Virus record (IMG/VR): IMGVR_UViG_3300047311_000444
Coordinates: 1 to 57,458 of that record
DNA length: 57,458 nucleotides
Reading direction: 5' to 3' (one strand)
Source: a virus
Taxonomy: Duplodnaviria; Caudoviricetes
The translations under genes were made by a program, and so were the position numbers. Position 1 is the stretch's first letter. Every line of letters begins with the position of its first letter. The notes under the pieces are model-generated. The model was not told the origin of the DNA. It did no database searches and worked only from the letters and a program-made list of their open reading frames with translations. This document shows positions 261 through 57,458 of the stretch, piece by piece.

Positions 261-782
261 ATGATCACAGCAGCCGACACGGCACCGACAAAACCATACC
301 CGAGACCCACCCAAGAGCAGAAAATAAAAGCTCGCGCCGCATACGTTCAAGGGAAGGGGTCCGCTCGCGTTGTTGCGGGTCTCTTCGGGCTCAATGCAGA
401 GACCGTGCAAGACTGGATCACGGATGAAGGATGGGTGGACATGCGAGCGGATTATGACAAGCGGCAACTTGAGAAGTTGCTCGCTCCCCCGACACCGGCG
501 CCAGCAATCCCGCAAGAGCAGAGCAGCGGAAACCGACAGGTGGACAGACTGTCTGGACAGATGCGTGCGATAGAAGAGCAGATGGAAGGAATGACGAACG
601 CCGATAGCCTTGCCAAGCTCGCAATGGCTCATTCAAAGCTCTTTGACGCATGGTGCGTACTCACTGGCACCCCTAGACCTGGGGTCCGCAAGGTCGCAAA
701 GCCGGGTCGTTCGCTCGCTCCTATCGTGGCGCCTACTGAGTCTACAGCGCAAGCGGTTGAATCACAGCCGCTTCCCGAATAA
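261..782 (+). CDS. Terminase small subunit-like HTH protein (allele A)
   Basis: N-terminal HTH (ARAAYVQG..VAGLFGLNAETVQDW..EGW), coiled coil, C-terminus nearly identical to 56783-57334; ATG 261 matches the MITAA start of the other copy. Confidence 0.6.
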   Translation: MITAADTAPTKPYPRPTQEQKIKARAAYVQGKGSARVVAGLFGLNAETVQDWITDEGWVDMRADYDKRQLEKLLAPPTPAPAIPQEQSSGNRQVDRLSGQMRAIEEQMEGMTNADSLAKLAMAHSKLFDAWCVLTGTPRPGVRKVAKPGRSLAPIVAPTESTAQAVESQPLPE

Positions 783-906
783 TGGCATCACAATGCTTAT
801 TATGTTTCAATCGGGCTTGCTCCTTTCGTAAGTGACTCCTAAGCATGCTTTTGCGCTGGTCTGGACCGTCACCGCGGGCCCAGGGCGGCACCCCCCGCGC
901 GGCGTG
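780..906. repeat. 127-bp exact repeat of window end (57332-57458)
   Basis: Direct comparison; identity stops at 779/57331. Confidence 0.97.
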
Positions 907-948
907 CCCGATCGTATATGACGCCCCCTCTTTTATCGGCAGTGCATT

Positions 949-1266
949 TTACAGCATTCTCTTGGGATTCAACCACTTAATGAACTGCCTTGCTGGACGG
1001 TGAAACCACAGTGCTTCGGGCATCTCGATCGGGACCCCGGCGATGTCGGCTCGGAAGTCGATCATTGCGCGCCAAACTTCGATTGGCATCCACTTGGGCT
1101 TCAACGGTTCAAGGCTCTCGTAGCAGACGTGTCCTATCCAGGCGTCGTCAGTTGGTGCCCAGTCTTTGAGAATCTCGCGATCGAAGTGCGGGGTTTGGTC
1201 GAGGAGGAAGTTGATGTACTCCGAGCAGTCGGGCTCCTCTTTCCTGCGTAAGTTGGGCTCTTTCAC
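949..1266 (-). CDS. Small protein containing a copy of the major capsid protein N-terminal segment
   Basis: FLLDQTPHFDREILKDWAPTDDAWIGHV vs MCP FLFDQSPHFDKDILKDWFPTDDAWIGHV; start uncertain (GTG 1266; ORF open to 1425). Confidence 0.65.
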   Translation of the reverse strand: MKEPNLRRKEEPDCSEYINFLLDQTPHFDREILKDWAPTDDAWIGHVCYESLEPLKPKWMPIEVWRAMIDFRADIAGVPIEMPEALWFHRPARQFIKWLNPKRML

Positions 1267-1302
1267 GTGAGTTACGTCGATTCCTGCAACCGTGTCCGGA
1301 TT

Positions 1303-1323
1303 TGTCCGGGACATGTCCGGGAC
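1303..1323 (-). repeat. Inverted exact 21-bp copy of the putative origin iteron pair at 8472-8492
   Basis: Reverse complement GTCCCGGACATGTCCCGGACA equals 8472-8492. Confidence 0.85.
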
Positions 1324-1329
1324 ATCCTC

Positions 1330-2145
1330 GTAGGTGGAGTTATACCCACGCGCGTTATAGATGCCGTGACAGGAGAGGGCCTTTCGGCGGGCTCCTGCTC
1401 CGCGCCCCATGGTGTTTACTGCCATGGGTGGGCGGACTGTCGGGTTTGACTATTGGTCGCGGCGCTGCGGGGACAGGCGTAAGGACAGCGGTAAATGCCG
1501 TCGACGCGGACCTCTTCGGACTTTGTTGTCGCAGGCCCATGCCCCCCTGCTCGGGGACGGCACGTTGACACATGGCTTGGGCTCAATCAGCGGCCCTACT
1601 GTGACCATGCGTTGGTTATCTGCGTCTGCACTGCTTCGTGCGGATAGCGGGGAAAGGGGTTGTTGTACTCGAGGATGAGCCTGAGCCCTGGTTGTGCTTT
1701 TAGGGGATACCCAGAGCGGCCCTCCCACCTGCGGGCAATTGAAGCGCCAACCGCACCGTGTACGCTCGAAGTGTGCGCCGGGATGGGTAGCTATTTCACT
1801 ACGGGTCCGCAGCGGAAAACGAGTCGATTGGTACCGTGGAGGCGCTTCAAATTGGCGGCACCCCTGATCGGCAGTCTCAGCACACGGGGACTGTCCAGGA
1901 GCCCCGTTCGTTTTGGACACGTGCTTAGCCGGGGATGCCAGAAGATCAGCAAGGGTCCCGCCGAACTGACGGACCAGGACGGGCATAAAACAGGACCCCC
2001 GTTCGGTTCCTCCGACGCCGGGGGTCCTGCCGCCAATGAACCGATCCGCTGCTGGATTCGTGGAAGGGAAGGCTCCAGCGGGCCTTGCGTCTGGTTTCCA
2101 CCCCAGATCAAACCGGCGCACGACCACCATAGTAATGCGCCGATC
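1330..2145 (-). ncRNA. Candidate large structured non-coding RNA (~815 nt)
   Basis: No convincing ORF; more than 12 nested helices, a GAAA tetraloop, a pseudoknot, G-U pairs mostly favouring the minus strand. Confidence 0.6.
1986..2029 (-). terminator. Possible intrinsic terminator (or one helix of the candidate ncRNA)
   Basis: 11-bp perfect stem 1991-2001/2019-2029 followed by only UUUUA on the minus strand. Confidence 0.35.
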
Positions 2146-2317
2146 ACACAGCCAACGAACAGGGATACACTCCTGATTTGCTGCGTGAAAAGGAAGCGCC
2201 GCGCGTTGTTGAAATCTTGGAACGATTTGCCCACCTTGAGCGACGCGCGGCGAAAATGTTACTGTCTGTTCCAGATTCAACGTGGCACTTGTCGCACACG
2301 TGCTCCGGGGTTGTCAA
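2144..2317 (-). CDS. Small hypothetical protein (CxxC)
   Basis: TTGA start/stop overlap with the upstream gene. Confidence 0.35.
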   Translation of the reverse strand: MTTPEHVCDKCHVESGTDSNIFAARRSRWANRSKISTTRGASFSRSKSGVYPCSLAV

Positions 2318-2532
2318 GTGGTTTTCGGCGGGACCTTGGAAAATCTCCGATCCAGGTCCTCCACGGTGATCGTCCGCTGGCGGCGCTTCCAGCCCTTCGA
2401 GTGCCGAAAATGCCAGTCGTTTCCGGGGTCTGGAACTTCCTTCTCCTGCCACGCAACAGTGACTTTGTTCTCGAAGGATGCGGAGCCCCTGATAATACGA
2501 TACCAGCGGACGATGCGGACGAGCTTGCTCAT
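2314..2532 (-). CDS. Hypothetical basic protein
   Basis: MSKLVRIV start 1 nt after the upstream stop. Confidence 0.55.
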   Translation of the reverse strand: MSKLVRIVRWYRIIRGSASFENKVTVAWQEKEVPDPGNDWHFRHSKGWKRRQRTITVEDLDRRFSKVPPKTT

Positions 2533-2533
2533 G

Positions 2534-2851
2534 TCATCGGCGCGGGTATCCCGGCTCACCGATCGGAGCAGTCGGAGCGGGCGGGACGAAATCCTGAGAG
2601 GGCGGCGCGGAGCCGACGCGGGCGCGTGGCTCGCGTAGTCCCGGCTCACTGGCGATGCAAGGTCCGTCGTCACGCTTCAGGCCCGGGTTGACGGCGCTGG
2701 CGAGAAACGACTTTTCGAGCGCTTGCGGGTTTTCCATGTAGCGGCGCAGCGCGTCCAGCAGATATTCCCGGCTCTCGAACACGACGGTTTGACAGCCCAC
2801 GTGACAGACGAATCCGTTCAACACGGGGATGATTTTTATTTCTCGGGTCAT
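2534..2851 (-). CDS. Hypothetical protein
   Basis: ATGA-coupled start MTREIKIIPVLNGFVCHVGCQ. Confidence 0.7.
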   Translation of the reverse strand: MTREIKIIPVLNGFVCHVGCQTVVFESREYLLDALRRYMENPQALEKSFLASAVNPGLKRDDGPCIASEPGLREPRARVGSAPPSQDFVPPAPTAPIGEPGYPRR

Positions 2852-3345
2852 GGGTCCTTTGGTTGTGGTTTTCCGAACAGATCGAAATAACTCTCGGGCG
2901 GACAAAGCTCATGCTGCGGGACCCAGAAGGCGGGGCGATTCTTGGCGTATGGAGAGCCCCAAAGCTCCGGTCGCTTCCCGTCGCGGGCGTACGTCCAACC
3001 CTTGATCACATACGTTCCGTTTTTCCCGCAGACCAGCCAAAAGATTCGGTCGTCAGGATCGGACGGGTGCAGGCGCAGAGCGTAATCATCCTTCGGTGCG
3101 GTGCGGCAATCCATGTCGCCCACGTCGGGACCCCGGAAAATGCCCTTGCCATTCCACGGCAGGCCCAGGAACTTCGACAGCGCCATTTCCCCCAGGATTC
3201 CCTCAATGTGAATTTGCCAGTCGTTGAGAGATTCATCACCGTGGGCGGGCTTGCGGTTCAGTTTGAGGTTCTCAATCTGCCGCGCGATACCCGCTAAGGC
3301 GCAAAGCTCGATCTCTTCGATGGGTAGGACGACGCGCTTGTTCAT
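2848..3345 (-). CDS. Phage hypothetical protein, possible PD-(D/E)XK-like fold
   Basis: EGILGEMAL...PDVG..DCRT pattern; ATGA coupling. Confidence 0.6.
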   Translation of the reverse strand: MNKRVVLPIEEIELCALAGIARQIENLKLNRKPAHGDESLNDWQIHIEGILGEMALSKFLGLPWNGKGIFRGPDVGDMDCRTAPKDDYALRLHPSDPDDRIFWLVCGKNGTYVIKGWTYARDGKRPELWGSPYAKNRPAFWVPQHELCPPESYFDLFGKPQPKDP

Positions 3346-3791
3346 TTCAATAGTGTTACATTGGGCCAACCGGCGTGTTTGTAAAGAGCCGACGCAATCA
3401 CGTCATACCACGCGACTCTTGCCACTCGTCGCACAGACGATTCAATAGCATCGACCAGGATTGATTTTCCCTGCCCGTTCGGGGGCATGTGTGCGCGATT
3501 GTTATCCGGAAAAAAGAGCACAATCAGGGTCCTTTCAACGGCGTCGAGTTGGTCCGGGGCGCAGGGAATAATAACCGCCCGATTCCACTTCATGTGATGG
3601 TGTGCGGTGACTCTGGAAATCACGTTCACCGATTGGCCGACATACACAAACTCAAACACTCCGGTATCTGCAAAATCCACCAGCACGTAAACTCCACAGA
3701 TGCGATCAACTCGCTTGATGACTGACGTAGTCCCGATGTCGACAACAGCGGGCAGGCTGAAGGGTAACGGAGATTCTTGGCGGACGCTCAT
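3342..3791 (-). CDS. GIY-YIG nuclease family protein
   Basis: GVYVL...YVGQS..VISRV..H...E..LI...P.NN motifs. Confidence 0.8.
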   Translation of the reverse strand: MSVRQESPLPFSLPAVVDIGTTSVIKRVDRICGVYVLVDFADTGVFEFVYVGQSVNVISRVTAHHHMKWNRAVIIPCAPDQLDAVERTLIVLFFPDNNRAHMPPNGQGKSILVDAIESSVRRVARVAWYDVIASALYKHAGWPNVTLLK

Positions 3792-4318: not shown

Positions 4319-4687
4319 TCAGTCCCTCGATTGAATCCCGCACAGTTTCCAGTTCTTGTGTCCCTGCTTGTTCATCCACGTCTCCACCTTGATCGCGCAG
4401 CGGACGATTTCTCCGGGAACGTCGGCAGCGTTCAACTCGTTGGTCGTGTCGCGCTGGCCCTTGTGGGGTCCCACACGCTGCGGCGTGGAGGGGATCATGT
4501 AAACGCTGTAGTGCAGGCGGGAATCAGCGCGAGCAAAGCCCGCTCCGTCGTGCCATGTCACATCAACCTGAATGCGCTGACGATCAATTTCAAGGACCCC
4601 CAAAACCTGCACATCGGTTGGCACGTTGCCGTTAAAAATGCGGACGTGATCACCACGCTTGAGCGCTTTGGCGTCAGAGATTTTCAC
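4319..4687 (-). CDS. Hypothetical protein (SH3/KOW-like N-terminus)
   Basis: GTGA coupling; LKRGDHVRI motif. Confidence 0.6.
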   Translation of the reverse strand: MKISDAKALKRGDHVRIFNGNVPTDVQVLGVLEIDRQRIQVDVTWHDGAGFARADSRLHYSVYMIPSTPQRVGPHKGQRDTTNELNAADVPGEIVRCAIKVETWMNKQGHKNWKLCGIQSRD

Positions 4688-5190
4688 TTGACCTTGTCCT
4701 CCCAAAATTCCCAGAGACCGTGCAGGATCGGGTGGAAGTTGTGCTGCATCATTTCCTCCTGCGCTTTCTCTTTGCTCCAGCCGTTGCATTGAATGCGATA
4801 CATGCCGACGACGAGCCCTGTCCGGTCCTCCCCGTGCTGGCAGTGGATGAAGATGTTTGTCATCGAAATTCCACCGTAGCGATTGAACACGAAGCCGGGT
4901 TGCAGGGACTCCAGCCCGATCTGCTGCCAGAAATTGATCGGCGCGCGGTAGACCGTCATGCCGATTTGCTCCGCGTAATTGTCGGAGCCCTCACGCTCCG
5001 TGTTGAGTTTGATCACCTTGGTTACGCCAAAGGATTTCAGGTAGTCCCATCCCTCCTTGCTCGGCTGGCCTCCACGCCAAACGCCTGGGCTCACCTTGTA
5101 AAAATTCGGGATTCCGAAACTTGTTGGCTTCGTCGCGCAGGACGTGGTGAGCAGCAGCGCCGCGCCGCCAATGATCTTCAGCAATTTCAT
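4684..5190 (-). CDS. Lipoprotein Cys-based (PTP/dual-specificity) phosphatase
   Basis: HCQHGEDRTG P-loop (CX5R), NFYKV..GVWRGGQP, lipobox-like LLTTSC after a hydrophobic leader. Confidence 0.85.
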   Translation of the reverse strand: MKLLKIIGGAALLLTTSCATKPTSFGIPNFYKVSPGVWRGGQPSKEGWDYLKSFGVTKVIKLNTEREGSDNYAEQIGMTVYRAPINFWQQIGLESLQPGFVFNRYGGISMTNIFIHCQHGEDRTGLVVGMYRIQCNGWSKEKAQEEMMQHNFHPILHGLWEFWEDKVK

Positions 5191-6724: not shown

Positions 6725-7197
6725 GGAAGCTTTTCGATTTCGTCGGCGTAATCGTTCCACTTCACACCAATCGTTGCGGCGAGCAAGCGTTCAACCCCCG
6801 TGGCGAAGCAATGCTGCCCATGGTATGGAGCGTGCGGGTCGTCTCCCGGCTCGTCCTCATTGCCCACGGCGCGATCCTTCTCAAACTCCATGTCGAATTT
6901 GTCCACAGTCACCTGATCAATACCATCGGACTTGCATAGCATGCACTCAACGAGTTCGTGGACCGCAATCAGCGCTTCCATTTTCCAGGACGGAAGCTTG
7001 CTGACGCGGATATTAAGCGTGACGTTGATCAACGGCAGGTGCTCGCGCCTGCACCCGGCGCACGTGACTGCTTCAACCCGTGGAGTGATGATGCTTTGAG
7101 AGCACTCCTTGCAAAAATAAGTGTAGTCGTAAAACCAGTCACCCACGGTTGCATACCTCTGGTCCTTGTGCTCGATCGTTTCGATGACGATTCTCAT
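6721..7197 (-). CDS. Putative zincin-like metalloprotein with inserted Zn ribbon
   Basis: QRYATVGDW...HELVE...EPGDDPHAPYHGQH..ATGVE; CKEC/CAGC insert. Confidence 0.55.
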   Translation of the reverse strand: MRIVIETIEHKDQRYATVGDWFYDYTYFCKECSQSIITPRVEAVTCAGCRREHLPLINVTLNIRVSKLPSWKMEALIAVHELVECMLCKSDGIDQVTVDKFDMEFEKDRAVGNEDEPGDDPHAPYHGQHCFATGVERLLAATIGVKWNDYADEIEKLP

Positions 7198-7580
7198 GAT
7201 CGCTTGTTCCCGTGTTTGTGCGGGCGGGTTTGGTTGAAAGCGTGTTTGGTGAGGATCGCATGCACAATGTCGATCTTCAACCGCTTCGACGTATCAAAGG
7301 CCCGGATGACGATGTCGGCAAGCTCCTCCTCCGCGCAGGTGAGAGCGTCAAGGCCAACTTCCCGCATCTTCCCCGCCTTGTCGCAGGGTTCATCGAAGGT
7401 CCCATTTCTCCACGCTTCATGAAACTCGCTGATTTCATCGTGCATGTTGTTCGACGTTTGCTCGATGAACGTATGCTTGGTCTGGCCCTTCGGGTGAAAT
7501 CCCTTGTTGACGGCGTTCCGGTGGATTGAAGCAACCAAGTCCTTCAGAAAACAGTGAGTCGTTAATTCGATTTCGGGCAT
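7194..7580 (-). CDS. MazG-like nucleotide pyrophosphohydrolase
   Basis: EISEFHEAWR...EEELADIVIRAFD...K.AFNQTRPHKHG. Confidence 0.8.
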   Translation of the reverse strand: MPEIELTTHCFLKDLVASIHRNAVNKGFHPKGQTKHTFIEQTSNNMHDEISEFHEAWRNGTFDEPCDKAGKMREVGLDALTCAEEELADIVIRAFDTSKRLKIDIVHAILTKHAFNQTRPHKHGNKRS

Positions 7581-7780
7581 GGTTCAACAGCGAGTTGATT
7601 GTGATTGAAAATATGCAGTATGCCGCGATCGTCCTCCACGACGTACCGGCAGGCGCCAGATTTCTTCGTGAACGCACTCATGATCTCGCCCGAAAAGGTG
7701 TAATCGCCCCCGATCTTTCGAACGTGCAGGCCGACCCGAAATAGAAAATCAGTCTTGGGAGTTGTTTGATCGTCGCTCAA
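7562..7780 (-). CDS. Small SH3-fold protein, distantly DfrB/R67-like
   Basis: FRVGLHVRKIGGDYTFSGEI...YVVEDDRGILHIF. Confidence 0.5.
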   Translation of the reverse strand: MSDDQTTPKTDFLFRVGLHVRKIGGDYTFSGEIMSAFTKKSGACRYVVEDDRGILHIFNHNQLAVEPCPKSN

Positions 7781-7789
7781 TCGTCGTGG

Positions 7790-7817
7790 ATAATGAACGA
7801 GCGGCTTGACTTGTCAA
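7790..7817 (-). promoter_or_regulatory. Sigma70-like promoter with operator for the leftward accessory operon
   Basis: TTGACA-16-CATTAT; CGAGC-G-GCTTG at 7798-7808. Confidence 0.6.
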
Positions 7818-8008
7818 CAACAATTTTAGTGAACAACTGGGAACAAGTTTCCATTGACCCCATAGACAACGCATGAGATAACCGGCATGCGACGTTCACA
7901 AATGACGCCACACTTTTTCAACTACACCCTCGGAAACTCGGGTTTTACCGTTCGTCAGAGCGGGATTGTCCCTCGTCGCGCCGGGGGTGTAGTTGAAGGA
8001 GCCTGGTG

Positions 8009-8779
8009 ATGTTCGCCAAAGTTTTTGAGCAGATTCTTGATTCGTCGATAGCTTCCGACTGGCAAATCCGGCACGTATTCGAAGACTTCCTGAAGCTCGC
8101 CAGAAAGGTGGGCTCGGACTGGATCGTCGATATGACGCCGGACAGCATCTCTCGGCGAACCGGGGTCCCGCTGGACATTGTTGAGCGGGCGATCGCAAAC
8201 CTCGAAAGCCCAGACACGCAGAGCCGGACTCCAGATCACGACGGACGCAGGCTTATTCGCCTGGATGAACATCGGTCCTGGGGCTGGATTATCGTCAACT
8301 ACCAAAAATACAGGGAGATCGCTTCCAAGGAGATGGTTCGCATGTCGGAGGCTGAGCGGAAGAAGGAATACCGCAGCCGATCGACTCCCCTCTCCCCCTT
8401 TCCCCCTGTACCCCCTAACCCTTGTACCCCTGTACAGAGTACAGATACAGAAGCAGAGCGGTCCCGTGTTGGTCCCGGACATGTCCCGGACAGACCCTCA
8501 CTGAACAACATGGTTGAATACGGGAAGACCATAGGTCTATCTGTAACAGAATCAACGAAGTGCTTCGATTATTACCAGTCAAACGGCTGGAAGGTAGGAA
8601 GAAACCCGATGAAGGACTGGAAAGCCTCAATTCGTAACTGGTCCCGCAACGTCAATGCAACCACTCAAAAACATAATCCCCCGCGTTATGACAGAAATGC
8701 CACGACCGTCAACGACCCCGACAAGTGGGCAGCAGCCCGAGCCGCCAAAGAGGGAAGAGAAAACCTTCCAGGACTTTAA
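8009..8779 (+). CDS. Phage replication initiator (replisome organiser)
   Basis: MFAKVF..ILDSSI, wHTH, GW.IVNYQKYR; C-terminal FDYYQSNGWKVGRNPMKDWKASIRNW; followed by loader and DnaB. Confidence 0.8.
   Translation: MFAKVFEQILDSSIASDWQIRHVFEDFLKLARKVGSDWIVDMTPDSISRRTGVPLDIVERAIANLESPDTQSRTPDHDGRRLIRLDEHRSWGWIIVNYQKYREIASKEMVRMSEAERKKEYRSRSTPLSPFPPVPPNPCTPVQSTDTEAERSRVGPGHVPDRPSLNNMVEYGKTIGLSVTESTKCFDYYQSNGWKVGRNPMKDWKASIRNWSRNVNATTQKHNPPRYDRNATTVNDPDKWAAARAAKEGRENLPGL
8395..8495 (+). promoter_or_regulatory. Putative replication origin inside the initiator gene
   Basis: Tandem GTCCCGGACA repeats plus CCCCTGTA and TACAGA repeats in the linker, as in lambda O-type genes. Confidence 0.55.
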
Positions 8780-37253: not shown

Positions 37254-37419
37254 TTGACTCCATCCGTAAAAATACGGATTGTCACGTCGAGATGTAAAAG
37301 GGTTGCTGGATTCTTCTCTCCAGCAGGCAGGACGGCGCTGCCCCAAAAATCGGCCTGTGTAGGAAACGACCCCGCGTAACCGCTCGCGCTTTGGCGCGGC
37401 AAACACAGACCGAACAGTT
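37254..37419 (+). promoter_or_regulatory. Capsid promoter and structured 5' leader
   Basis: TTGACT, palindrome ATCCGTA-AAAA-TACGGAT (37262-37279), hairpins TGCTGGA/TCCAGCA, GGCAG/CTGCC, TCGG.CTGTGT/ACACAG.CCGA. Confidence 0.45.
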
Positions 37420-38751
37420 ATGGCAACCTGGAATTGCGCCGCATTTTTCGACTTTCTCTTTGATCAAAGTCCCCACTTCGACAAGGACATCCTCAAGGAT
37501 TGGTTTCCCACAGATGACGCCTGGATCGGCCACGTCGCGACCATCCCGTGGGATTCTTTCACCGGCACAACGCATGTGTACGATCACGTGCATGTTGGCG
37601 CCCCCGACCTGAGCCAAGCCTGGGACACCTTCGATACCCAGAGCACGCAATGCGTGACGAACGCTTGCACGCCGAAAGCAATCTCGGTGGGCTGGGGATC
37701 GACGCGGAAGACCTACAGCCGCGAGCGCAAGCGCTACGAGACGAATGTTCTCTGCTTCGACCAGATGAACACGCGCGCCAAGGCCAAGCAGCAACTCGCG
37801 GAGATCATCCGGGGCATCAAGGACCTCACGAAGATGATCTGGAGCGATTACATTCGCCGCAACTCCCTGATGCAGTCGCCCACGCTTTACATCGCTGGCG
37901 CGGCTCGCAACACCGTGGCGATCACTCCTGCGATGTTCACGGGCGGCATGGCGACGATCGTCCTCGGCAGCGACGGGCTGTTGCCGACGAGCACGCTGAC
38001 GATCCAGTATCTCCAGCGGTTTTACGAACTGCTCCAGGGCAACGGTTACTTCAAGTCGAAGTACGTTCCCAATGGCGTGTTCAAACTGATCACCGACCCG
38101 ATCTCGACGCAGCAGTTGATCGAGATGAACCCGGCGCTCGTCTCCAACTTCAAGTTCACCGACTTCACCCGAGGCGGCGAACTGTTCAAGTACGGCATGA
38201 GCAAGGGCATCGGAAACTTCGGCATCGCCTGGGATTTGTTTCCGGCGCGCTTCTATCCCAAAAATGACGGACACGGAACGCTCGTCCGTGTGTGGCCCTA
38301 TCTGAATCAGGCCGCAACGATCGGTATCAAGCCGGTCTTCAATCAAAAGTGGGTGGACGCGCCGATTCAATACAGCCCGATCTGGCACCCGGAAGCGATG
38401 AAGCGCGCCGTGCCGGAACTCACTCCGGTTCATCCGGAAATGCCCTTCCTCACCCGCGACCTGGGCGGCAAGTGGAACTTCACGGGACCCGACAGCGACA
38501 CGATCGTTGTCACGGACCCGACGACCGGCCAAACCTGCGTGATCGACAATAAGGCGCGCAATCAGGGGCTCTGGTGGGCGGACTTCGAATCCGGTTTCAA
38601 GTTCGAGTATCCGGAATGGACCGCTCCGATCCTCCACCTGCGCGAACCCGGCTGCGTCGTGGACAATCCGGTCTGCACCACGGCACCGGCTTACGTCGTC
38701 CAGGACTACTCGGACGTGAATCCGGTCTGCACCGAACTGGGACCGTTCTAA
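37420..38751 (+). CDS. Major capsid protein (putative)
   Basis: 443 aa, strong high-expression codon bias, own promoter/leader and 3' hairpin, downstream of scaffold. Confidence 0.75.
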   Translation: MATWNCAAFFDFLFDQSPHFDKDILKDWFPTDDAWIGHVATIPWDSFTGTTHVYDHVHVGAPDLSQAWDTFDTQSTQCVTNACTPKAISVGWGSTRKTYSRERKRYETNVLCFDQMNTRAKAKQQLAEIIRGIKDLTKMIWSDYIRRNSLMQSPTLYIAGAARNTVAITPAMFTGGMATIVLGSDGLLPTSTLTIQYLQRFYELLQGNGYFKSKYVPNGVFKLITDPISTQQLIEMNPALVSNFKFTDFTRGGELFKYGMSKGIGNFGIAWDLFPARFYPKNDGHGTLVRVWPYLNQAATIGIKPVFNQKWVDAPIQYSPIWHPEAMKRAVPELTPVHPEMPFLTRDLGGKWNFTGPDSDTIVVTDPTTGQTCVIDNKARNQGLWWADFESGFKFEYPEWTAPILHLREPGCVVDNPVCTTAPAYVVQDYSDVNPVCTELGPF

Positions 38752-53179: not shown

Positions 53180-54664
53180 TTAAACTCCAATCTTGCGTTG
53201 ACCCGTGGCAGCGTCCGCAGTCCTTGAATAAACACCGGCTTTGCTCGCTGAAATAAAGCGACCGTTCGCCAGCGTCCGCAAGCTTTCAACTTGGTCCGGA
53301 GCGCTCACAGCAACCGGGACGATATAGCGCGCGGCTTCTGCCAAGGACAAGCCCGTCCTTGAAGCCATATCGCAGCAAGCTTTAATCTCTGCCCCCGTCC
53401 AGTTATCACACTCCGGAAGCGGGTCATTGAAAGTCCCGTCCGGGAAAAACTTTTTGACATACATTGGCCAGATTTTGGCCCGTTCCTCTTCGCTGGGCAG
53501 GTCTACAAAAAACGTCCCCAGAGAGAAGCGGCGCCGCAACTCCGGGGGCAAGCTCGCGATTTTGTTACAAGTCGCAATGAACAGCCCTTTGCCCTGTGAG
53601 ACCGCTTTAAAAACTTCCATCGCTGTTCGAATTCTCCGCTCGCTCTCCCCGACAAGTGAACCCTTCATTGCTCCGGTATCAATCGCCACAACAGGGCAGC
53701 CCGCCACGTTCCCCGCTGCTTTGGCGATTGCGGACTTCCCCGTCCCCGGATGCCCCAGAAGGATGATTCCCGGAATGTTCAGGTCTTGCATGACTTTCAG
53801 AAAAACTTGCAATTGGTCTTGTGAAGTCCCGGACGTATCGCCAGCGCTCCCGGCAAGGCCCTTTTCTATTTCGTCAATGAAGCCAATGCAGCGCACCGGA
53901 GTTTTGCCGCTTGTTAAAACGCGAGTCAAAAAGTCTTTCAGGTTGCCCAGCCCGCCCAGGTCCGCAAACGTTTCCCCGCCCGTCCAGACTTGCAGCCCCG
54001 GAGTCTGTTCGATCATCTTGCGCTTGCGCTCCCAGAGTGCCCCGCAGTCGACTCCGGACTTTGAAACGGACATTGCAAGGACTTGTTCGGCGGCAAACGC
54101 AGAGAGACCGCGAAGCGTGTCAATAACCCTGGGCTTGTCCCCGTCGACGTTGCAGGGCACGGACGCTGCAATGCTGTCCACGATTGCGGAAAGTTCCGTT
54201 TCGTCCGGCAACTCTTCCGTGATCACTAAAACGTCTTGCTTGAGTTCAGCCGGGAGCGTCAATGCTGGGCACAGCAAAACAAGCGTGCATTGCTTTGACT
54301 TGAAAATGTCCCGCAAGTTCCAAAACCCTTGCAAAATATCTACCGTGTCAATGAACCGCTGCGCGTTGTGCCAAAAAAAGATTGAATTCTCCGGGGCACG
54401 CTCCGCAAGGACTTTCAGGCACTCGGCGGGGTTCAAACATTCAATCCCGTTCGGGTTCACTGTGGCCACAAAGCGCTTGCCCCGTTCGGACCCGAATACG
54501 GGGACAAGACCGCGCATAACATCCCACTCGCAAAGGGTGATTTCGGAAAGCTTGCCGTTGAGTTGCTTTAAGCAATTGGCAATTGTCTGGGCGGGGTCCG
54601 CCGATTCGATAGCGCAAAGCGGGACGCTCGCGCGGCGTATGGTTTTAAATTGTGCGGGGCTCAT
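53180..54664 (-). CDS. Ycf46-like AAA+ ATPase
   Basis: LPAEL, TFADLGGLGNLK, GIILLGHPGTGKS.IAKA, GSLVGESE, ATCN..SLPPELRRRF..FFVDLP, WTGAEI. Confidence 0.85.
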   Translation of the reverse strand: MSPAQFKTIRRASVPLCAIESADPAQTIANCLKQLNGKLSEITLCEWDVMRGLVPVFGSERGKRFVATVNPNGIECLNPAECLKVLAERAPENSIFFWHNAQRFIDTVDILQGFWNLRDIFKSKQCTLVLLCPALTLPAELKQDVLVITEELPDETELSAIVDSIAASVPCNVDGDKPRVIDTLRGLSAFAAEQVLAMSVSKSGVDCGALWERKRKMIEQTPGLQVWTGGETFADLGGLGNLKDFLTRVLTSGKTPVRCIGFIDEIEKGLAGSAGDTSGTSQDQLQVFLKVMQDLNIPGIILLGHPGTGKSAIAKAAGNVAGCPVVAIDTGAMKGSLVGESERRIRTAMEVFKAVSQGKGLFIATCNKIASLPPELRRRFSLGTFFVDLPSEEERAKIWPMYVKKFFPDGTFNDPLPECDNWTGAEIKACCDMASRTGLSLAEAARYIVPVAVSAPDQVESLRTLANGRFISASKAGVYSRTADAATGQRKIGV

Positions 54665-54694
54665 ATCGTTTGTTTTAGTTTTACTGTGGCGAGC

Positions 54695-54723
54695 AATCTA
54701 GCAAGCCGCTTGTTCGTTGTCAA
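54695..54723 (-). promoter_or_regulatory. Early sigma70 promoter with operator
   Basis: TTGACA-ACGAACAAGCGGCTTGC-TAGATT. Confidence 0.75.
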
Positions 54724-54821
54724 GAGTTTAAAAAGGTGCCCGTCCCGTAAGTGCAAGACGAACCTTGAGCTTGCCGGGACGGGTGCCCCAGGGGACAAAC
54801 GAGAACCCCAGGGCGAAAGGG

Positions 54822-55361
54822 TTAAGGTGCTCGCCGCTCGCCGCGCATAAACGCGCGCCACTGTTCAGCCGCAAGTTGAGTCTTGAAGCGTGCGTACTCT
54901 ACAGCAACCGCGTCCCGTCCAACTCCACAAAGCGCTCGCCACGGATACTCAGGGCAAGCCGGGTCGCTTTCAATCACGATAGTTGGCAGAACATATCCGG
55001 GGTGTCTGTAGACTTCGCGACCGTCGACAAGCAATCGCACAATGCAGTCGCACAGGATTGCCGGACCCCCGGACGATTGTTTAGACTTCAGGAGCAAGAG
55101 GACTTTGACCGGACCCGTAGACCTGCCCAGGTATCCGGCAACGTCATTCTCTTCAAGCCAATCTTTCCCGGTAGTGGCATCGCCCAGGAACAAGCGCACG
55201 TACGCTTTACTGGCAAAGGCCGCTTCGAGCGCTTGAACTACAGGGCGCGGCGTTGTGTCGTGGTAGTACGTTCCGGACGGTTCGCGAACATCGCGGAACT
55301 TGACGCCGGTTGGACCCGTCCATTCGTGGACAGCCGGACCTTGTGTCGTTGCATTGCTCAT
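54822..55361 (-). CDS. Phage early hypothetical protein
   Basis: VRLFLGD..TGKDWLEE.DV.GYLGRSTG...SSGG.AIL. Confidence 0.7.
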   Translation of the reverse strand: MSNATTQGPAVHEWTGPTGVKFRDVREPSGTYYHDTTPRPVVQALEAAFASKAYVRLFLGDATTGKDWLEENDVAGYLGRSTGPVKVLLLLKSKQSSGGPAILCDCIVRLLVDGREVYRHPGYVLPTIVIESDPACPEYPWRALCGVGRDAVAVEYARFKTQLAAEQWRAFMRGERRAP

Positions 55362-55447
55362 TGTCGTTTGTCGCTTTTGTTATTGGTTCAGTCTGGGCTT
55401 TTGCCCAGCGCTGGCGCCGCGACCTGGGGCCACGGCGCCGCCGCTGT

Positions 55448-55729
55448 TCAAATGCGGTGCGCCGCTTCGAATTGTTTACGTGCCGTGCTCCACCGCACCC
55501 CGGCTTTGCGCGCGTCCCGTTTCGCCTGTGCAAGCTTCTGCCCATGCCACAGGGCGGCCATGCGGTAAAGGTCCGAAAGGGCCACAACGTACCGCGTGCG
55601 CTTGCCTTTCAGCCGCAGTCCGATGAGCGCTTCAGACTGCGAACCTGCTGGCGCAATGGTTATGAGCACCGCGCGAGACCCGATACGCTTCGCGGTCTCA
55701 CGTGTGACGGGCTTTTCCAGTTTCGTCAT
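55448..55729 (-). CDS. Basic hypothetical protein
   Basis: MTKLEKPVTRE...IGLRLKG.R. Confidence 0.65.
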   Translation of the reverse strand: MTKLEKPVTRETAKRIGSRAVLITIAPAGSQSEALIGLRLKGKRTRYVVALSDLYRMAALWHGQKLAQAKRDARKAGVRWSTARKQFEAAHRI

Positions 55730-56418: not shown

Positions 56419-56651
56419 TGTGCCCCTCCTTCCATGCCGAACGTATTCAGAGTGTGTAAGTGATCACTGGCGCACTGGGGCTTTGAGAGCTTTTGCACAG
56501 TGGAATTGCCTTTGCTGTCATAGGTGACGCGCACAAGGGTGAATTTGCCATGTGCAACGTTGTGCCCAAGGGAGGAATCCCCAGTGCGGGCTTTCAATCG
56601 CTTCATAGCAGAGACCAAGTCCGCAAGCGTCAGTTTGTCGTTTGTCTTCAT
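56415..56651 (-). CDS. First early protein (MKTNDKL...)
   Basis: A-rich leader GACAAACGACAATG. Confidence 0.6.
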   Translation of the reverse strand: MKTNDKLTLADLVSAMKRLKARTGDSSLGHNVAHGKFTLVRVTYDSKGNSTVQKLSKPQCASDHLHTLNTFGMEGGAQ

Positions 56652-56782
56652 TGTCGTTTGTCTGTTCGTTTGTTGTTATACCGTAGGCTGTCAACATACA
56701 GGAGAGCAATCCACAGCACAATCCGCAGTAGTACGGACGAAAGGGCTTGCCCTAGGCGAAGAGTCTGGGGTATGGAAAGGGC

Positions 56783-57334
56783 ATGATCACAGCAGCCGAA
56801 AGCCCCCCGCCAGCACCCCCCAGGATTATCCGTAGGCGCCCCACGGCAGAGACAAAGCGCAAGCTCCGGACAGACTTTGTGCAAGGTCGCGGTTCAATGA
56901 CAAGTCTGGGGCTCAAATACGGGGTCTCTCTCACCAGCGTTAAGGCATGGGCTAAGCGGGAAAAATGGAGCGAGCTTAAAACGGCGTTCAGTGAGCGAGC
57001 GCTTGAGAACACAGTCCTGCCAGTACCAGAACAGCCCGCAAGCTTGCCAGTACTCTCGCCACAGCAAACCCGAATTGCCAGAGTCGAAAGAGAGCTTGAA
57101 CGGTTGGAGCTTGCCATGGACAAGGCCCATGCGGAAGACGGCACGTGCAACGCGCAAACCGTTCGCGATGTAAGTGCCGCGCACTCAAGACTTTTCGACG
57201 TATGGTGCACCCTCACAGGAACGCCGCGACCTGGGGTCCGGAAGACTGTGAAACCGGGTCGCTCGCTCGCTCCTATCATTGCGCCTACTGAGTCGACAGC
57301 GCAAGCGGTTGAACCTCAGAAGCTTGGCGATTAA
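56783..57334 (+). CDS. Terminase small subunit-like HTH protein (allele B)
   Basis: FVQGRGSMTSLGLKYGVS..SVKAWAKREKW HTH; C-terminus AHS.LFD.WC.LTGTPRPGVRK shared with 261-782. Confidence 0.6.
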   Translation: MITAAESPPPAPPRIIRRRPTAETKRKLRTDFVQGRGSMTSLGLKYGVSLTSVKAWAKREKWSELKTAFSERALENTVLPVPEQPASLPVLSPQQTRIARVERELERLELAMDKAHAEDGTCNAQTVRDVSAAHSRLFDVWCTLTGTPRPGVRKTVKPGRSLAPIIAPTESTAQAVEPQKLGD

Positions 57335-57458
57335 TGGCATCACAATGCTTATTATGTTTCAATCGGGCTTGCTCCTTTCGTAAGTGACTCCTAAGCATGC
57401 TTTTGCGCTGGTCTGGACCGTCACCGCGGGCCCAGGGCGGCACCCCCCGCGCGGCGTG
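57332..57458. repeat. 127-bp exact repeat of 780-906
   Basis: Direct comparison. Confidence 0.97.

Follow-up and report, generated by a model that had tools for sequence, protein, structure and literature searches.

Within a conserved non-coding block of a soil phage genome, we put at an even chance the presence of a structured RNA of ~170–240 nt that would be transcribed from the minus strand and end in a terminator, serving as an attenuator or as a 3′-end RNA. This RNA matches no Rfam family and is, on the best reading, new. A terminator-like site is present and is exceptionally stable, and a coding signal is absent. Judged from the sequences of natural variants, compensatory changes maintain the pairing of one hairpin (A) and of a loop-loop helix (B), which genuinely points to selection on base pairing, though in a small part of the block only; the evidence overall is thin, coming from one lineage and two covarying pairs. 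The window analyzed here is the entire 57.5-kb (57,458-bp) phage record in IMG/VR, which is of soil origin, and the runs listed as containing the sequence comprise 24 DNA runs from soil and rhizosphere and no RNA sequencing run. The phage has few recognizable genes.

The block (1289–2220, minus strand) is 98–99% identical to the corresponding region of a relative, L003, except for one 258-nt indel, and its two ends coincide with recombination junctions in the comparison with relatives; a second relative, contig X24, likewise diverges before 1289. The region around it has a mosaic make-up, with indels and exchanged genes, and the flanking genes lie on the minus strand. Immediately past the 1289 junction, the downstream gene (949–1266, minus) is exchangeable, a different arginine-rich 50-aa ORF taking its place in L003 and X24. 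At the other end, a hypervariable spacer (2221–2306, minus; ~35% difference from L003) separates the block from the gene just upstream (2314–2533, minus), which encodes a small basic protein of 72 aa, differs from L003 by 5 substitutions (four of them at third codon positions) and gave empty results in both a homologue and a family search. The original prediction had called this the largest stretch of the operon to lack a credible gene, and this is confirmed: no frame in ~1430–2310 has coding-like codon usage, and the codon-usage score of the block is at most 0.02 in all six frames, compared with 0.26 ± 0.12 for true genes (minimum −0.01). Low divergence was rejected as a sign of constraint since patches of equal conservation abound in the rest of the L003 alignment, where 17 of 190 aligned 200-nt windows contain no difference at all.

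The terminator-like site (1985–2029, minus), identified in a genome scan, has the structure of an intrinsic terminator, a stem-loop plus a U run on the minus strand: 11 uninterrupted base pairs, 9 of them G-C, form a G+C-rich stem (2029–2019/2001–1991), and TTTTAT (1990–1985) follows. Its hairpin (1991–2029) is the most stable of 28 hairpin-plus-T-run sites genome-wide (−28.2 kcal/mol vs. −26.2 kcal/mol for the next), and the site is invariant across all relatives seen. It was missed by a terminator scan because its 17-nt loop exceeds the limit of 3–8 nt used there. A scan of 700–3000 for sigma-70-like promoters found no sites, by rules from which those of the host may differ, as may its terminator rules.

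Directly upstream on the minus strand, and adjoining the terminator-like hairpin, lies an element of two hairpins whose loops are predicted to pair. The first, Hx (2090–2107, minus; predicted, 5 bp, 2107–2103/2094–2090), bears in its 8-nt loop the 5′ half of helix B (2096–2101), and the 3′ half (2060–2065) lies in the 17-nt loop of the second, hairpin A (2051–2079, minus; 6 bp, 2079–2074/2056–2051). In natural variants the pair 2053/2077 of hairpin A changes from T-A to G-C and the pair 2099/2062 of helix B from G-C to C-G, while in an alternative register of hairpin A, termed A′ (2046–2051/2076–2081), the partner of 2077 is 2050, itself altered in those same haplotypes. The bases at 2050/2053/2062/2077/2099 are T,T,G,A,C in the window, G,G,G,C,C in L003 and G,G,C,C,G in the X24 and X21 contigs; all three haplotypes allow 2077 to pair with 2053 or 2050 and 2062 with 2099, with perfect 6-bp helices throughout. 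All helices other than hairpin A and helix B never vary. These include a predicted hairpin farther upstream, H1 (2112–2144, minus; 10 bp, 2144–2135/2121–2112, with a small inner stem and 2 G·U pairs on the minus strand only), whose invariance gives it no covariation support.

When 14 random substitutions were placed across the block, at least two compensatory pairs in helices of at least 6 bp arose in 2.05 × 10⁻⁴ of 200,000 trials, and when 5 were placed in the same 60 nt (local null, 300,000 trials) two disjoint pairs arose at frequencies of 1 × 10⁻⁴ (helices of at least 6 bp) to 7.9 × 10⁻⁴ (at least 4 bp). Both covarying base pairs were seen among 3 haplotypes from a single phage population, and changes that look compensatory can also be obtained by template switching in DNA quasi-palindromes, without RNA selection. 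Minimum-energy predictions for the element are unstable. Folded alone, 1939–2230 (minus) is predicted to pair 2077 with 2061 and 2062 with 2076 in a hairpin that the variants break, so the supported model cannot be read directly off the energy optimum. If hairpin A is imposed and the nucleotides of the loop-loop helix are kept free, the predicted energy is only 1.3–2.5 kcal/mol worse than the unconstrained optimum, and the loop-loop duplex is predicted to contribute −8.9 kcal/mol.

The original prediction had gone further and read positions 1330–2145 as a single RNA of ~815 nt with a pseudoknot. All 13 complementary pairs that it named are present with no non-pairing position, all 5 imperfect positions are A·C on the plus strand and G·U on the minus strand, as it had implied, and the hairpin near 1625–1644 does carry one T·G that favors the plus strand. 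As a whole, 1330–2145 folds better than its shuffles (z = −3.24 for both strands, none of 20 shuffles being equally good), to be read against a control that covered the initial 29.4 kb of this genome in 100 window-strands, each 300 nt long and shuffled 15 times, in which the mean z was −0.32 (SD 1.27) and 4 of 100 window-strands reached z ≤ −3.2. One of these four falls in the region under study itself. The expectation of folding beyond that of shuffles holds for part of the region only, namely 1939–2230 (z −2.81 minus, −2.46 plus) and 1330–1679 (−2.46 minus, −0.71 plus), while 1680–1938 (−0.86 minus, −1.17 plus) folds no better than shuffles. Two predicted hairpins lie at 1370–1428 (minus): the one at 1397–1392/1375–1370 closes GCC-GAAA-GGC, with a GAAA loop readable on the minus strand only, and the one at 1428–1422/1412–1406 has a natural variant (1419) in its loop.

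The stretch 1680–1938 (259 nt, minus) is optional, being present in the window, in the relative L004 and in the four (of 24) metagenome runs compared and absent from L003 (a net 258 nt). Seven of the 13 helices lie in it or reach into it, among them the pseudoknot (1892–1897/1914–1919), the complementarity of which is genuine but which lies wholly in DNA that folds like its shuffles and that L003 does without. Covariation, proposed with the prediction as a check, is found as compensatory change in the element at 2046–2101 and supports no base pair elsewhere. What survives of the single ~815-nt RNA is the non-coding character of the region and selected pairing in a small part of it; telling against its unity are the terminator-like site, which would split it, and the lack in L003 of 7 of its 13 helices.

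The sequence data appear to favor the minus strand because of the G·U asymmetry, the difference in folding z between the strands of 1330–1679, the minus-strand orientation of the flanking genes and the smaller number of pairs that natural variants break in the whole-block fold (1 pair with p ≥ 0.86 on the minus strand, 6 pairs with p ≥ 0.89 on the plus strand).

Searches for known families agree with the impression of the original prediction that the region resembled no known class by eye. At gathering score, Rfam had no match anywhere in the window, and at E ≤ 10 the segments 800–2900, 1960–2240 and 1270–2000 returned chance-level rows only, with no GOLLD or ROOL and no riboswitch or leader family; a related motif outside Rfam is conceivable in the supplementary list of PMC5737381. 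The best Rfam row, the Caulobacter sRNA CC3552 family, scored 21.6 bits, below its gathering score of 50, and was rejected. ARAGORN detected no tRNA genes in the 57,458-bp record. No DNA similarity was found in phage records or in plasmids, relatives of the block in IMG/VR amount to two contigs of the same lineage, and none of 81 pattern matches among JGI metagenome contigs was confirmed. The sole match in a species-genome search, a Caulobacter chromosome locus, was anchored on an 8-residue search word only (32% identity) and was judged spurious.

Neighboring genes were also used as search guides: ORF 949–1425 led to one locus, the helicase gene to four loci, all close relatives, and a 173-aa neighbor to seven viral loci and ten metagenome loci (37–57% identity). 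The five more distant of the seven viral loci (33–52% identity) have tightly packed genes and no large gap, and neither blastn nor nhmmer found similarity to the block in these five or in the ten metagenome loci. A covariance model of the element (R1, 2150–1980) recovered itself and same-lineage copies only in the window and 19 loci, and nothing real in seven further loci. Degenerate patterns searched in viral contigs picked up six extra contigs for the hairpin A loop and one for the Hx loop plus linker, and these were read as chance because in all seven the match is confined to the 17–22-nt pattern. No distant homologue of the block was found in any of these searches, and it is known from one soil phage lineage.

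The following mechanism is proposed as the likeliest. The block appears to sit inside a minus-strand operon of small accessory genes, and its upstream quarter (~2220 to 1985, core 2144–1985) would encode a folded RNA comprising, in order, the stable H1, then Hx and A joined by the 6-bp loop-loop pseudoknot, then the strong intrinsic terminator. This element would fold on the nascent minus-strand transcript and set its 3′ end. The two-hairpin fold with its closing helix would occupy 2041–2046 and so block a competing hairpin (2044–2031/2018–2003), whereupon the terminator (2029–1991) would halt transcription at the U run, releasing a stable structured 3′ end or a 3′-derived small RNA. If the fold were open, the competing hairpin would form and transcription would read through the remaining leader of 560–700 nt into the exchangeable downstream gene. 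The competing hairpin (2003–2044, minus; −20.4 kcal/mol) is antiterminator-like as predicted from one sequence, in which it excludes the terminator stem (−30.9 kcal/mol) and shares 2041–2044 with the possible closing helix. In this scheme the strand, the closing helix and the antiterminator alternative are inferred, as are the role of 1289–1984 and any ligand or protein throwing the switch.

Three kinds of known system resemble the proposed RNA in part. Riboswitches of the purine type terminate transcription and have two hairpins in loop-loop contact, and the element is like such a riboswitch or attenuator in that it has adjacent hairpins with pairing loops, in that the 3′ strand of its possible closing helix would overlap the competing hairpin, and in that this competing hairpin would exclude a strong terminator directly downstream. 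It differs in belonging to none of the Rfam riboswitch families, in its larger loops (8 and 17 nt), in a closing helix and switch that are so far conjectural, and in neighboring genes that suggest no ligand; moreover, the next start codon lies ~720 nt past the terminator in the window and 460 nt in L003, which is unusually far for an attenuator or riboswitch. Small RNAs derived from 3′-UTRs, and structured mRNA 3′ ends, share the terminator of their operon. The element is like these in following the stop codon of a small gene (2314) and ending in a strong terminator, the interval from ~2220 to 1985 being ~240 nt, and unlike them in that conserved non-coding DNA continues for 560–700 nt past the terminator and that no processing site, promoter or target is known. 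Finally, the put sites of HK022 and the nut sites of lambda are phage antitermination RNAs in early operons, and by analogy the two-hairpin element could be compared with them, being placed in what may be an early or accessory operon, directly before a terminator, with small basic proteins encoded on either side. No sequence or family evidence links it to put or nut, and a loop-loop contact is not a known feature of put.

It is unlikely, though conceivable, that the whole block (~2220–1289, minus, 930 nt with the optional 258-nt domain) is one large structured ncRNA (670–930 nt) of a new class, similar in size to GOLLD or ROOL, in which the terminator-like hairpin would be an internal helix that is read through and the loop-loop helix one of several tertiary contacts. 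The 890–930 nt without a coding signal, the many local hairpins, all of them confirmed, the overall folding z and the GAAA-capped hairpin at 1379–1388 fit such an RNA; the sharp recombination junctions at the block ends suggest that the block moves as a unit, and optional domains are frequent in large RNAs. Helices predicted at 2034–2031/1985–1982 and 2049–2041/1977–1969 would enclose the terminator, on the minus strand only and with 3 G·U pairs, and if real they argue for a longer, read-through RNA. Against this, the 11-bp G+C stem followed by UUUUAU should halt a bacterial polymerase at ~1985, the optional 259 nt fold like shuffles, and the 47 pairs that join 1680–1938 to the remainder in the optimum fold of the window are impossible in L003. 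Covariation outside 2046–2101 is nil, and neither an Rfam match, nor a nearby tRNA, nor a homologue turned up in the collections searched.

GOLLD and ROOL are described as large ornate RNAs of phages and prophages, often near tRNAs (Weinberg et al., 2017, PMC5737381; Kretsch et al., bioRxiv 10.1101/2024.12.08.627333). Like them, the stretch is phage-borne, several hundred nucleotides long, gene-free, dense in hairpins and provided with at least one pseudoknot-type contact, with no protein partner known. Unlike them, it has no match to an Rfam model even at E ≤ 10, its covariation backs two helices only, where those families have many multistem junctions and covariation-backed pseudoknots in one long transcript, it is split by a terminator-like site, it lacks 258 nt in one relative and it is confined to one soil lineage; the phage also has no tRNA genes, where tRNA proximity is a tendency of these families and not a strict rule.

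Similarly improbable is a DNA-level element, consisting of regulatory or replication sites, or a recombination scar or spacer, in which hairpins act or arise in DNA and the compensatory changes were templated by quasi-palindromes or entered with a small patch of recombination. The block ends in the near-palindrome GTCCNGGAC, present twice in tandem at a spacing of 11 bp (1304–1323, from repeat analysis), and an identical 21-nt doublet in the opposite orientation (8472–8491) lies beside repeat-rich DNA within the gene at 8006–8779, a short way upstream of the helicase gene; there are 10 occurrences of the motif where 1.23 would be expected. The mosaic surroundings fit this reading as well, and the G-C to C-G and T-A to G-C changes are uninformative about strand. 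On the other hand, a helix between the loops of two hairpins is a typical RNA tertiary contact with no obvious role in double-stranded DNA, the G·U asymmetry favors one transcribed strand, the terminator-like site is strand-specific, and templated mutation as a rule turns imperfect palindromes into perfect ones, whereas the two helices in question are perfect before and after the change.

We regard it as rather improbable that the block is functionless, a decayed relic whose G+C-rich sequence happens to fold well and whose two paired changes coincide by accident. The recurrence of folding this strong in about 4 of the 100 window-strands sampled, the unexceptional divergence of the block and its restriction to a single phage lineage are compatible with such a relic, but two disjoint compensatory pairs are rare even under the local null, 0.9 kb of useless DNA is rarely kept in a phage genome, and the block has been retained with sharp borders while its neighbors were exchanged.

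Least credible is a protein, encoded by ORF 1450–2280 (minus) or as a small membrane peptide starting at 2234 (minus): the net 258-nt indel relative to L003 equals 86 codons and leaves ORF 1450–2280 open, public gene callers annotate that ORF as a 226-aa or 197-aa protein (two such predicted proteins are public) and ORF 1791–2234 contains a hydrophobic stretch, but the codon-usage scores of the two ORFs are −0.157 and −0.09, G+C by codon position in ORF 1450–2280 is 0.66/0.58/0.56 (about 0.6/0.4/0.7 in real genes) so that position 2 exceeds position 3, the reverse of real genes, no Pfam or PHROG family matches it, its only two hits among 1,835,955,588 representative proteins (99% and 90% identity) are from the same lineage, and in L003 ORF 1791–2234 has no start codon before the hydrophobic stretch and a Gly-to-Arg change within it. 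The codon-pattern conservation that the original prediction named as telling against an RNA is seen in ORF 1450–2280 as a weak synonymous excess (6 of 13 substitutions, with 26% expected by chance) and not in codon composition or outside homologues; 4 of the 6 synonymous changes are exactly at RNA-paired positions, and the 7 non-synonymous ones include two Trp-to-Ser, compared with 14 synonymous and 2 non-synonymous changes in a control gene.

Hardly any work has gone into the structured RNAs of soil phages, and the terminator-ending element proposed here has a fold that is backed by compensatory variants from a wild population, including a tertiary-type loop-loop contact, and that belongs to no Rfam family, so that probing and termination assays would have in it a concrete object that is small and inexpensive to study. 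Should the element gate read-through into the exchangeable gene, it would illustrate the control of accessory cargo in phages of this kind, and if the whole block were one RNA, it would represent a new class of large RNAs, the equivalent of GOLLD and ROOL in a phage and a habitat quite unlike theirs.

The phage genome, a complete IMG/VR record of 57,458 bp that is classed as linear (CheckV completeness 96%), occurs in soil and rhizosphere metagenomes, and its proteins have few family matches, which include a DnaB-like helicase, a methyltransferase, a pyrophosphatase, a tyrosine-phosphatase-like protein and an exonuclease. The record ends (1-906 and 56521-57458) form an imperfect direct repeat, 88-91% identical in its best parts and with a DUF1804-like DNA-binding gene in each copy (87-782; 56783-57334), whereas only one copy stands at this place in the relative G001; the record could thus represent either tandem paralogues or a circular genome that was closed on two strain alleles. 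A minus-strand run of small genes from ~7580 to 949 contains, in an accessory operon, a MazG-like pyrophosphatase (7194-7580, minus; phrog_3301, E 9.4e-23) and a tyrosine/dual-specificity-phosphatase-like protein (4684-5190, minus; Pfam Y_phosphatase2, E 3.5e-11). Near the far end of this run is the gap without a credible gene that was originally predicted, the largest of the genome, and it is real, since no frame of the six scores above 0.02 across ~1430-2310 in a codon-usage measure trained on 19 long genes of the phage, in which true genes reach 0.26 ± 0.12. Its upstream edge is a 72-aa gene (2314-2533, minus), considered real because, in comparison with a relative, third codon positions hold four of its five substitutions, and at its downstream edge the coding signal begins near 1266-1314.

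The key evidence, for selected base pairing in a small part of this stretch, comes from natural variants in contigs of four metagenome runs aligned on 1200-2600. In addition to 1419C>G and the joint change 1836G>A and 1837T>G, a linked set of five substitutions (2050T>G, 2053T>G, 2062G>C, 2077A>C and 2099C>G) was found in two runs from different studies, while L003, a contig of the same lineage, has only 2050, 2053 and 2077. The 2053/2077 pair, in the predicted helix 2051-56/2074-79, goes from T-A to G-C; in a shifted register (2046-51/2076-81), 2077 pairs with 2050 instead. The 2062/2099 pair goes from G-C to C-G and belongs to a further helix of 6 perfect base pairs (2060-65/2096-2101), one absent from the original prediction. 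All five clustered substitutions are thus explained by pairing, and none of the haplotypes has a broken pair in the cluster. When 14 substitutions were placed at random in the block, two or more compensatory pairs in helices of at least 6 bp arose in 2.05e-4 of 200,000 trials, and when five were placed only inside the 60-nt region of the cluster, two disjoint pairs arose at frequencies of 1e-4 (at least 6 bp), 2.8e-4 (at least 5 bp) and 7.9e-4 (at least 4 bp) in 300,000 trials. In a two-sequence alignment the one pair visible as variable is changed on both sides, and each of the 46 pairs in the proposed structure is a standard one in both sequences.

Read on the minus strand, the element would begin with two predicted hairpins, H1 (2144-2135/2121-2112) and Hx (2107-2103/2094-2090), and after a 10-nt linker continue with hairpin A (2079-2074/2056-2051), which, like helix B (2060-65/2096-2101), has compensatory variants. 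Helix B joins the Hx loop to the A loop and so constitutes a loop-loop (kissing) pseudoknot. If hairpin A is imposed on the fold while the nucleotides of helix B are left free, the energy is 1.3-2.5 kcal/mol above that of the unconstrained optimum, and the helix B duplex has an energy of -8.9 kcal/mol. Located 21 nt beyond hairpin A is a perfect, G+C-rich 11-bp stem (2029-2019/2001-1991) followed by TTTTAT, and this terminator-like site (-28.2 kcal/mol) is the most stable of the 28 hairpin-plus-T-run sites found in the genome; its 17-nt loop is longer than the terminator scan allows, which explains its absence from the results of that scan. The runner-up (-26.2 kcal/mol; ~54682-54734, minus) is between an ATPase gene (53180-54664, minus) and ORF 54765-55568 (plus). 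Until the 3' arm of the terminator is made, the region would fold as an alternative hairpin (2044-2031/2018-2003, -20.4 kcal/mol) that is mutually exclusive with the terminator stem and that would have nucleotides 2041-2044 in common with a helix that may close Hx and A. Such a chain of exclusions, predicted from a single sequence only, would be what an attenuator or riboswitch relies on.

All 13 of the complementary pairs originally proposed are present with no non-pairing position, and the five imperfect positions are indeed A.C on the plus strand and G.U on the minus strand. The compensatory changes carry no strand information; the minus strand is favored by the G.U asymmetry, the folding of 1330-1679, a GAAA loop, the U run and the orientation of neighboring genes. 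On the whole-block fold, natural variants break six pairs at p >= 0.89 on the plus strand, versus one on the minus strand at p >= 0.86, where a further pair has a compensating change and another survives as G.U. Predicted folds shift with the segment chosen, and when 1939-2230 (minus) is folded alone, the optimum pairs 2077-2061 and 2062-2076 in another small hairpin that the variants contradict. The anticipated excess of folding over shuffled sequence holds for the whole 816 nt (1330-2145; z = -3.24 on either strand, 0 of 20 shuffles as good), for 1939-2230 (z -2.81 minus, -2.46 plus) and for the minus strand of 1330-1679 (-2.46, against -0.71 plus), but not for 1680-1938 (-0.86 minus, -1.17 plus). 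In a control that covered the first 29.4 kb of this genome on both strands in 300-nt windows (100 window-strands, 15 shuffles each), the mean z was -0.32 (sd 1.27) and four cases reached z <= -3.2, one of them within the gene-free stretch itself. Given the uneven z values and this control, folding energy alone is modest evidence for structure, and none for the middle third. The lowest control value (-4.43, plus, 7801-8100) spans a divergent intergenic region (7744-8006) with an inverted repeat (7908-7933/7981-8006).

All relatives found for the block (1289-2220) belong to one lineage. Identity with L003 is 99% over 1289-1679 and about 98% over 1939-2220; L003 lacks 1680-1938 (a net difference of 258 nt) and has another gene after 1289, while L004, a second contig of the lineage, is 99.4% identical from 1749, where it ends, onward. 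The metagenome contig X24 combines the 1680-1938 stretch with the L003-type downstream gene and diverges exactly before 1289. From these break points, the block behaves in sequence comparison as a unit bounded by sharp recombination junctions. Its low divergence is uninformative, as elsewhere 17 of 190 aligned windows of 200 nt are likewise free of differences. No real wider relatives were found in phage and plasmid records, IMG/VR, JGI metagenome contigs or species genomes, nor by searching 1.84 billion protein representatives or using a covariance model or degenerate patterns. The alternative gene directly past the junction (L003 5860-6027; the loose end of X24 before 1289) is an extremely arginine-rich 50-aa ORF with a good ribosome-binding site. 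The 85-nt spacer 2221-2306 differs from L003 by ~35% between flanks that are 98-99% identical, has a few conserved islands, and may be either a patch that came from some distant lineage or a promoter region. The 299-nt stretch 2524-2822 is missing from L003 (counterpart region 4669-5094), which fuses the first 11 codons of ORF 2534-2851 in frame to the 72-aa ORF.

Other repeats occur in the genome. The near-palindrome GTCCNGGAC occurs 10 times (1.23 expected; 0 of 100 shuffles reach 10), in tandem doublets at 1304-1323 and 8472-8491 and at six single sites; the doublets, with copies 11 bp apart, have an identical 21-mer in opposite orientation, and the motif looks like a binding site for a dimeric regulator or initiator. 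At 8400-8500, TGTACCCC / CTGTAC type repeats adjoin the doublet within ORF 8006-8779, just upstream of the helicase gene, making this a candidate replication origin within an initiator-like gene. Gene 949-1266 (at 1126-1214) and the region of ORF 37282-38637 (at 37448-37536), where the make-up by codon position is odd, are connected by an inverted repeat of 89 nt with 73% complementarity; this is probably what was originally termed the capsid-mimic ORF.

The original reading of the stretch as non-coding, structured and minus-strand-leaning stands; its extension to one giant 815-nt molecule is unsupported, and we consider a single large RNA of a new class across the whole block unlikely. The proposed molecule contains the genome's strongest terminator-like site. 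Seven of the 13 helices, including the pseudoknot then proposed, are in or across 1680-1938, which has no folding signal and is absent from a 98-99% identical relative, and 47 pairs of the window's optimum fold connect that stretch with other parts and are impossible in that relative. In its favor, the terminator hairpin is enclosed by predicted helices that form on the minus strand only, and no alternative explanation is at hand for the other 560-700 nt of sequence that is conserved and non-coding. That the stretch encodes protein after all is more improbable still: ORF 1450-2280 (minus) is covered by public gene calls of 226 and 197 aa, stays open across an indel that is a multiple of three relative to L003, and has a weak excess of synonymous substitutions (six of 13, 26% expected) that bears on the codon-pattern conservation raised at the outset, but four of those six are at RNA-paired positions, two of the seven non-synonymous changes are Trp-to-Ser (control gene 2848-3369 has 14 synonymous and two non-synonymous), its codon usage (-0.16) and G+C by codon position (0.66/0.58/0.56; real genes roughly 0.6/0.4/0.7) are not gene-like, and its only two matches among 1,835,955,588 protein representatives are from the same lineage. 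The hydrophobic ORF 1791-2234 (minus) has in L003 no start codon ahead of the hydrophobic stretch and a Gly-to-Arg change inside it.

As originally supposed, the structured RNA matches no known class: Rfam 15 gave no match at gathering score in the whole window and, at E <= 10, nothing but chance-level rows in three sub-ranges. GOLLD and ROOL are described as large RNAs of phages and prophages (ROOL averages 581 nt, GOLLD often exceeds 800 nt) with many junctions and pseudoknots and often with tRNAs nearby (PMC5737381; bioRxiv 10.1101/2024.12.08.627333). The stretch resembles them in its phage location, similar size range and pseudoknot-type contact, but is without a covariance-model match, broad covariation or tRNA context (no tRNA genes were found in the window). 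More than these large RNAs, the supported part resembles a sensing fold of two hairpins plus an expression platform, or a structured 3' end, and it is outside every described class of either. We would put at about even the chances that the element is a structured regulatory or 3'-end RNA of the phage that belongs to no described class.
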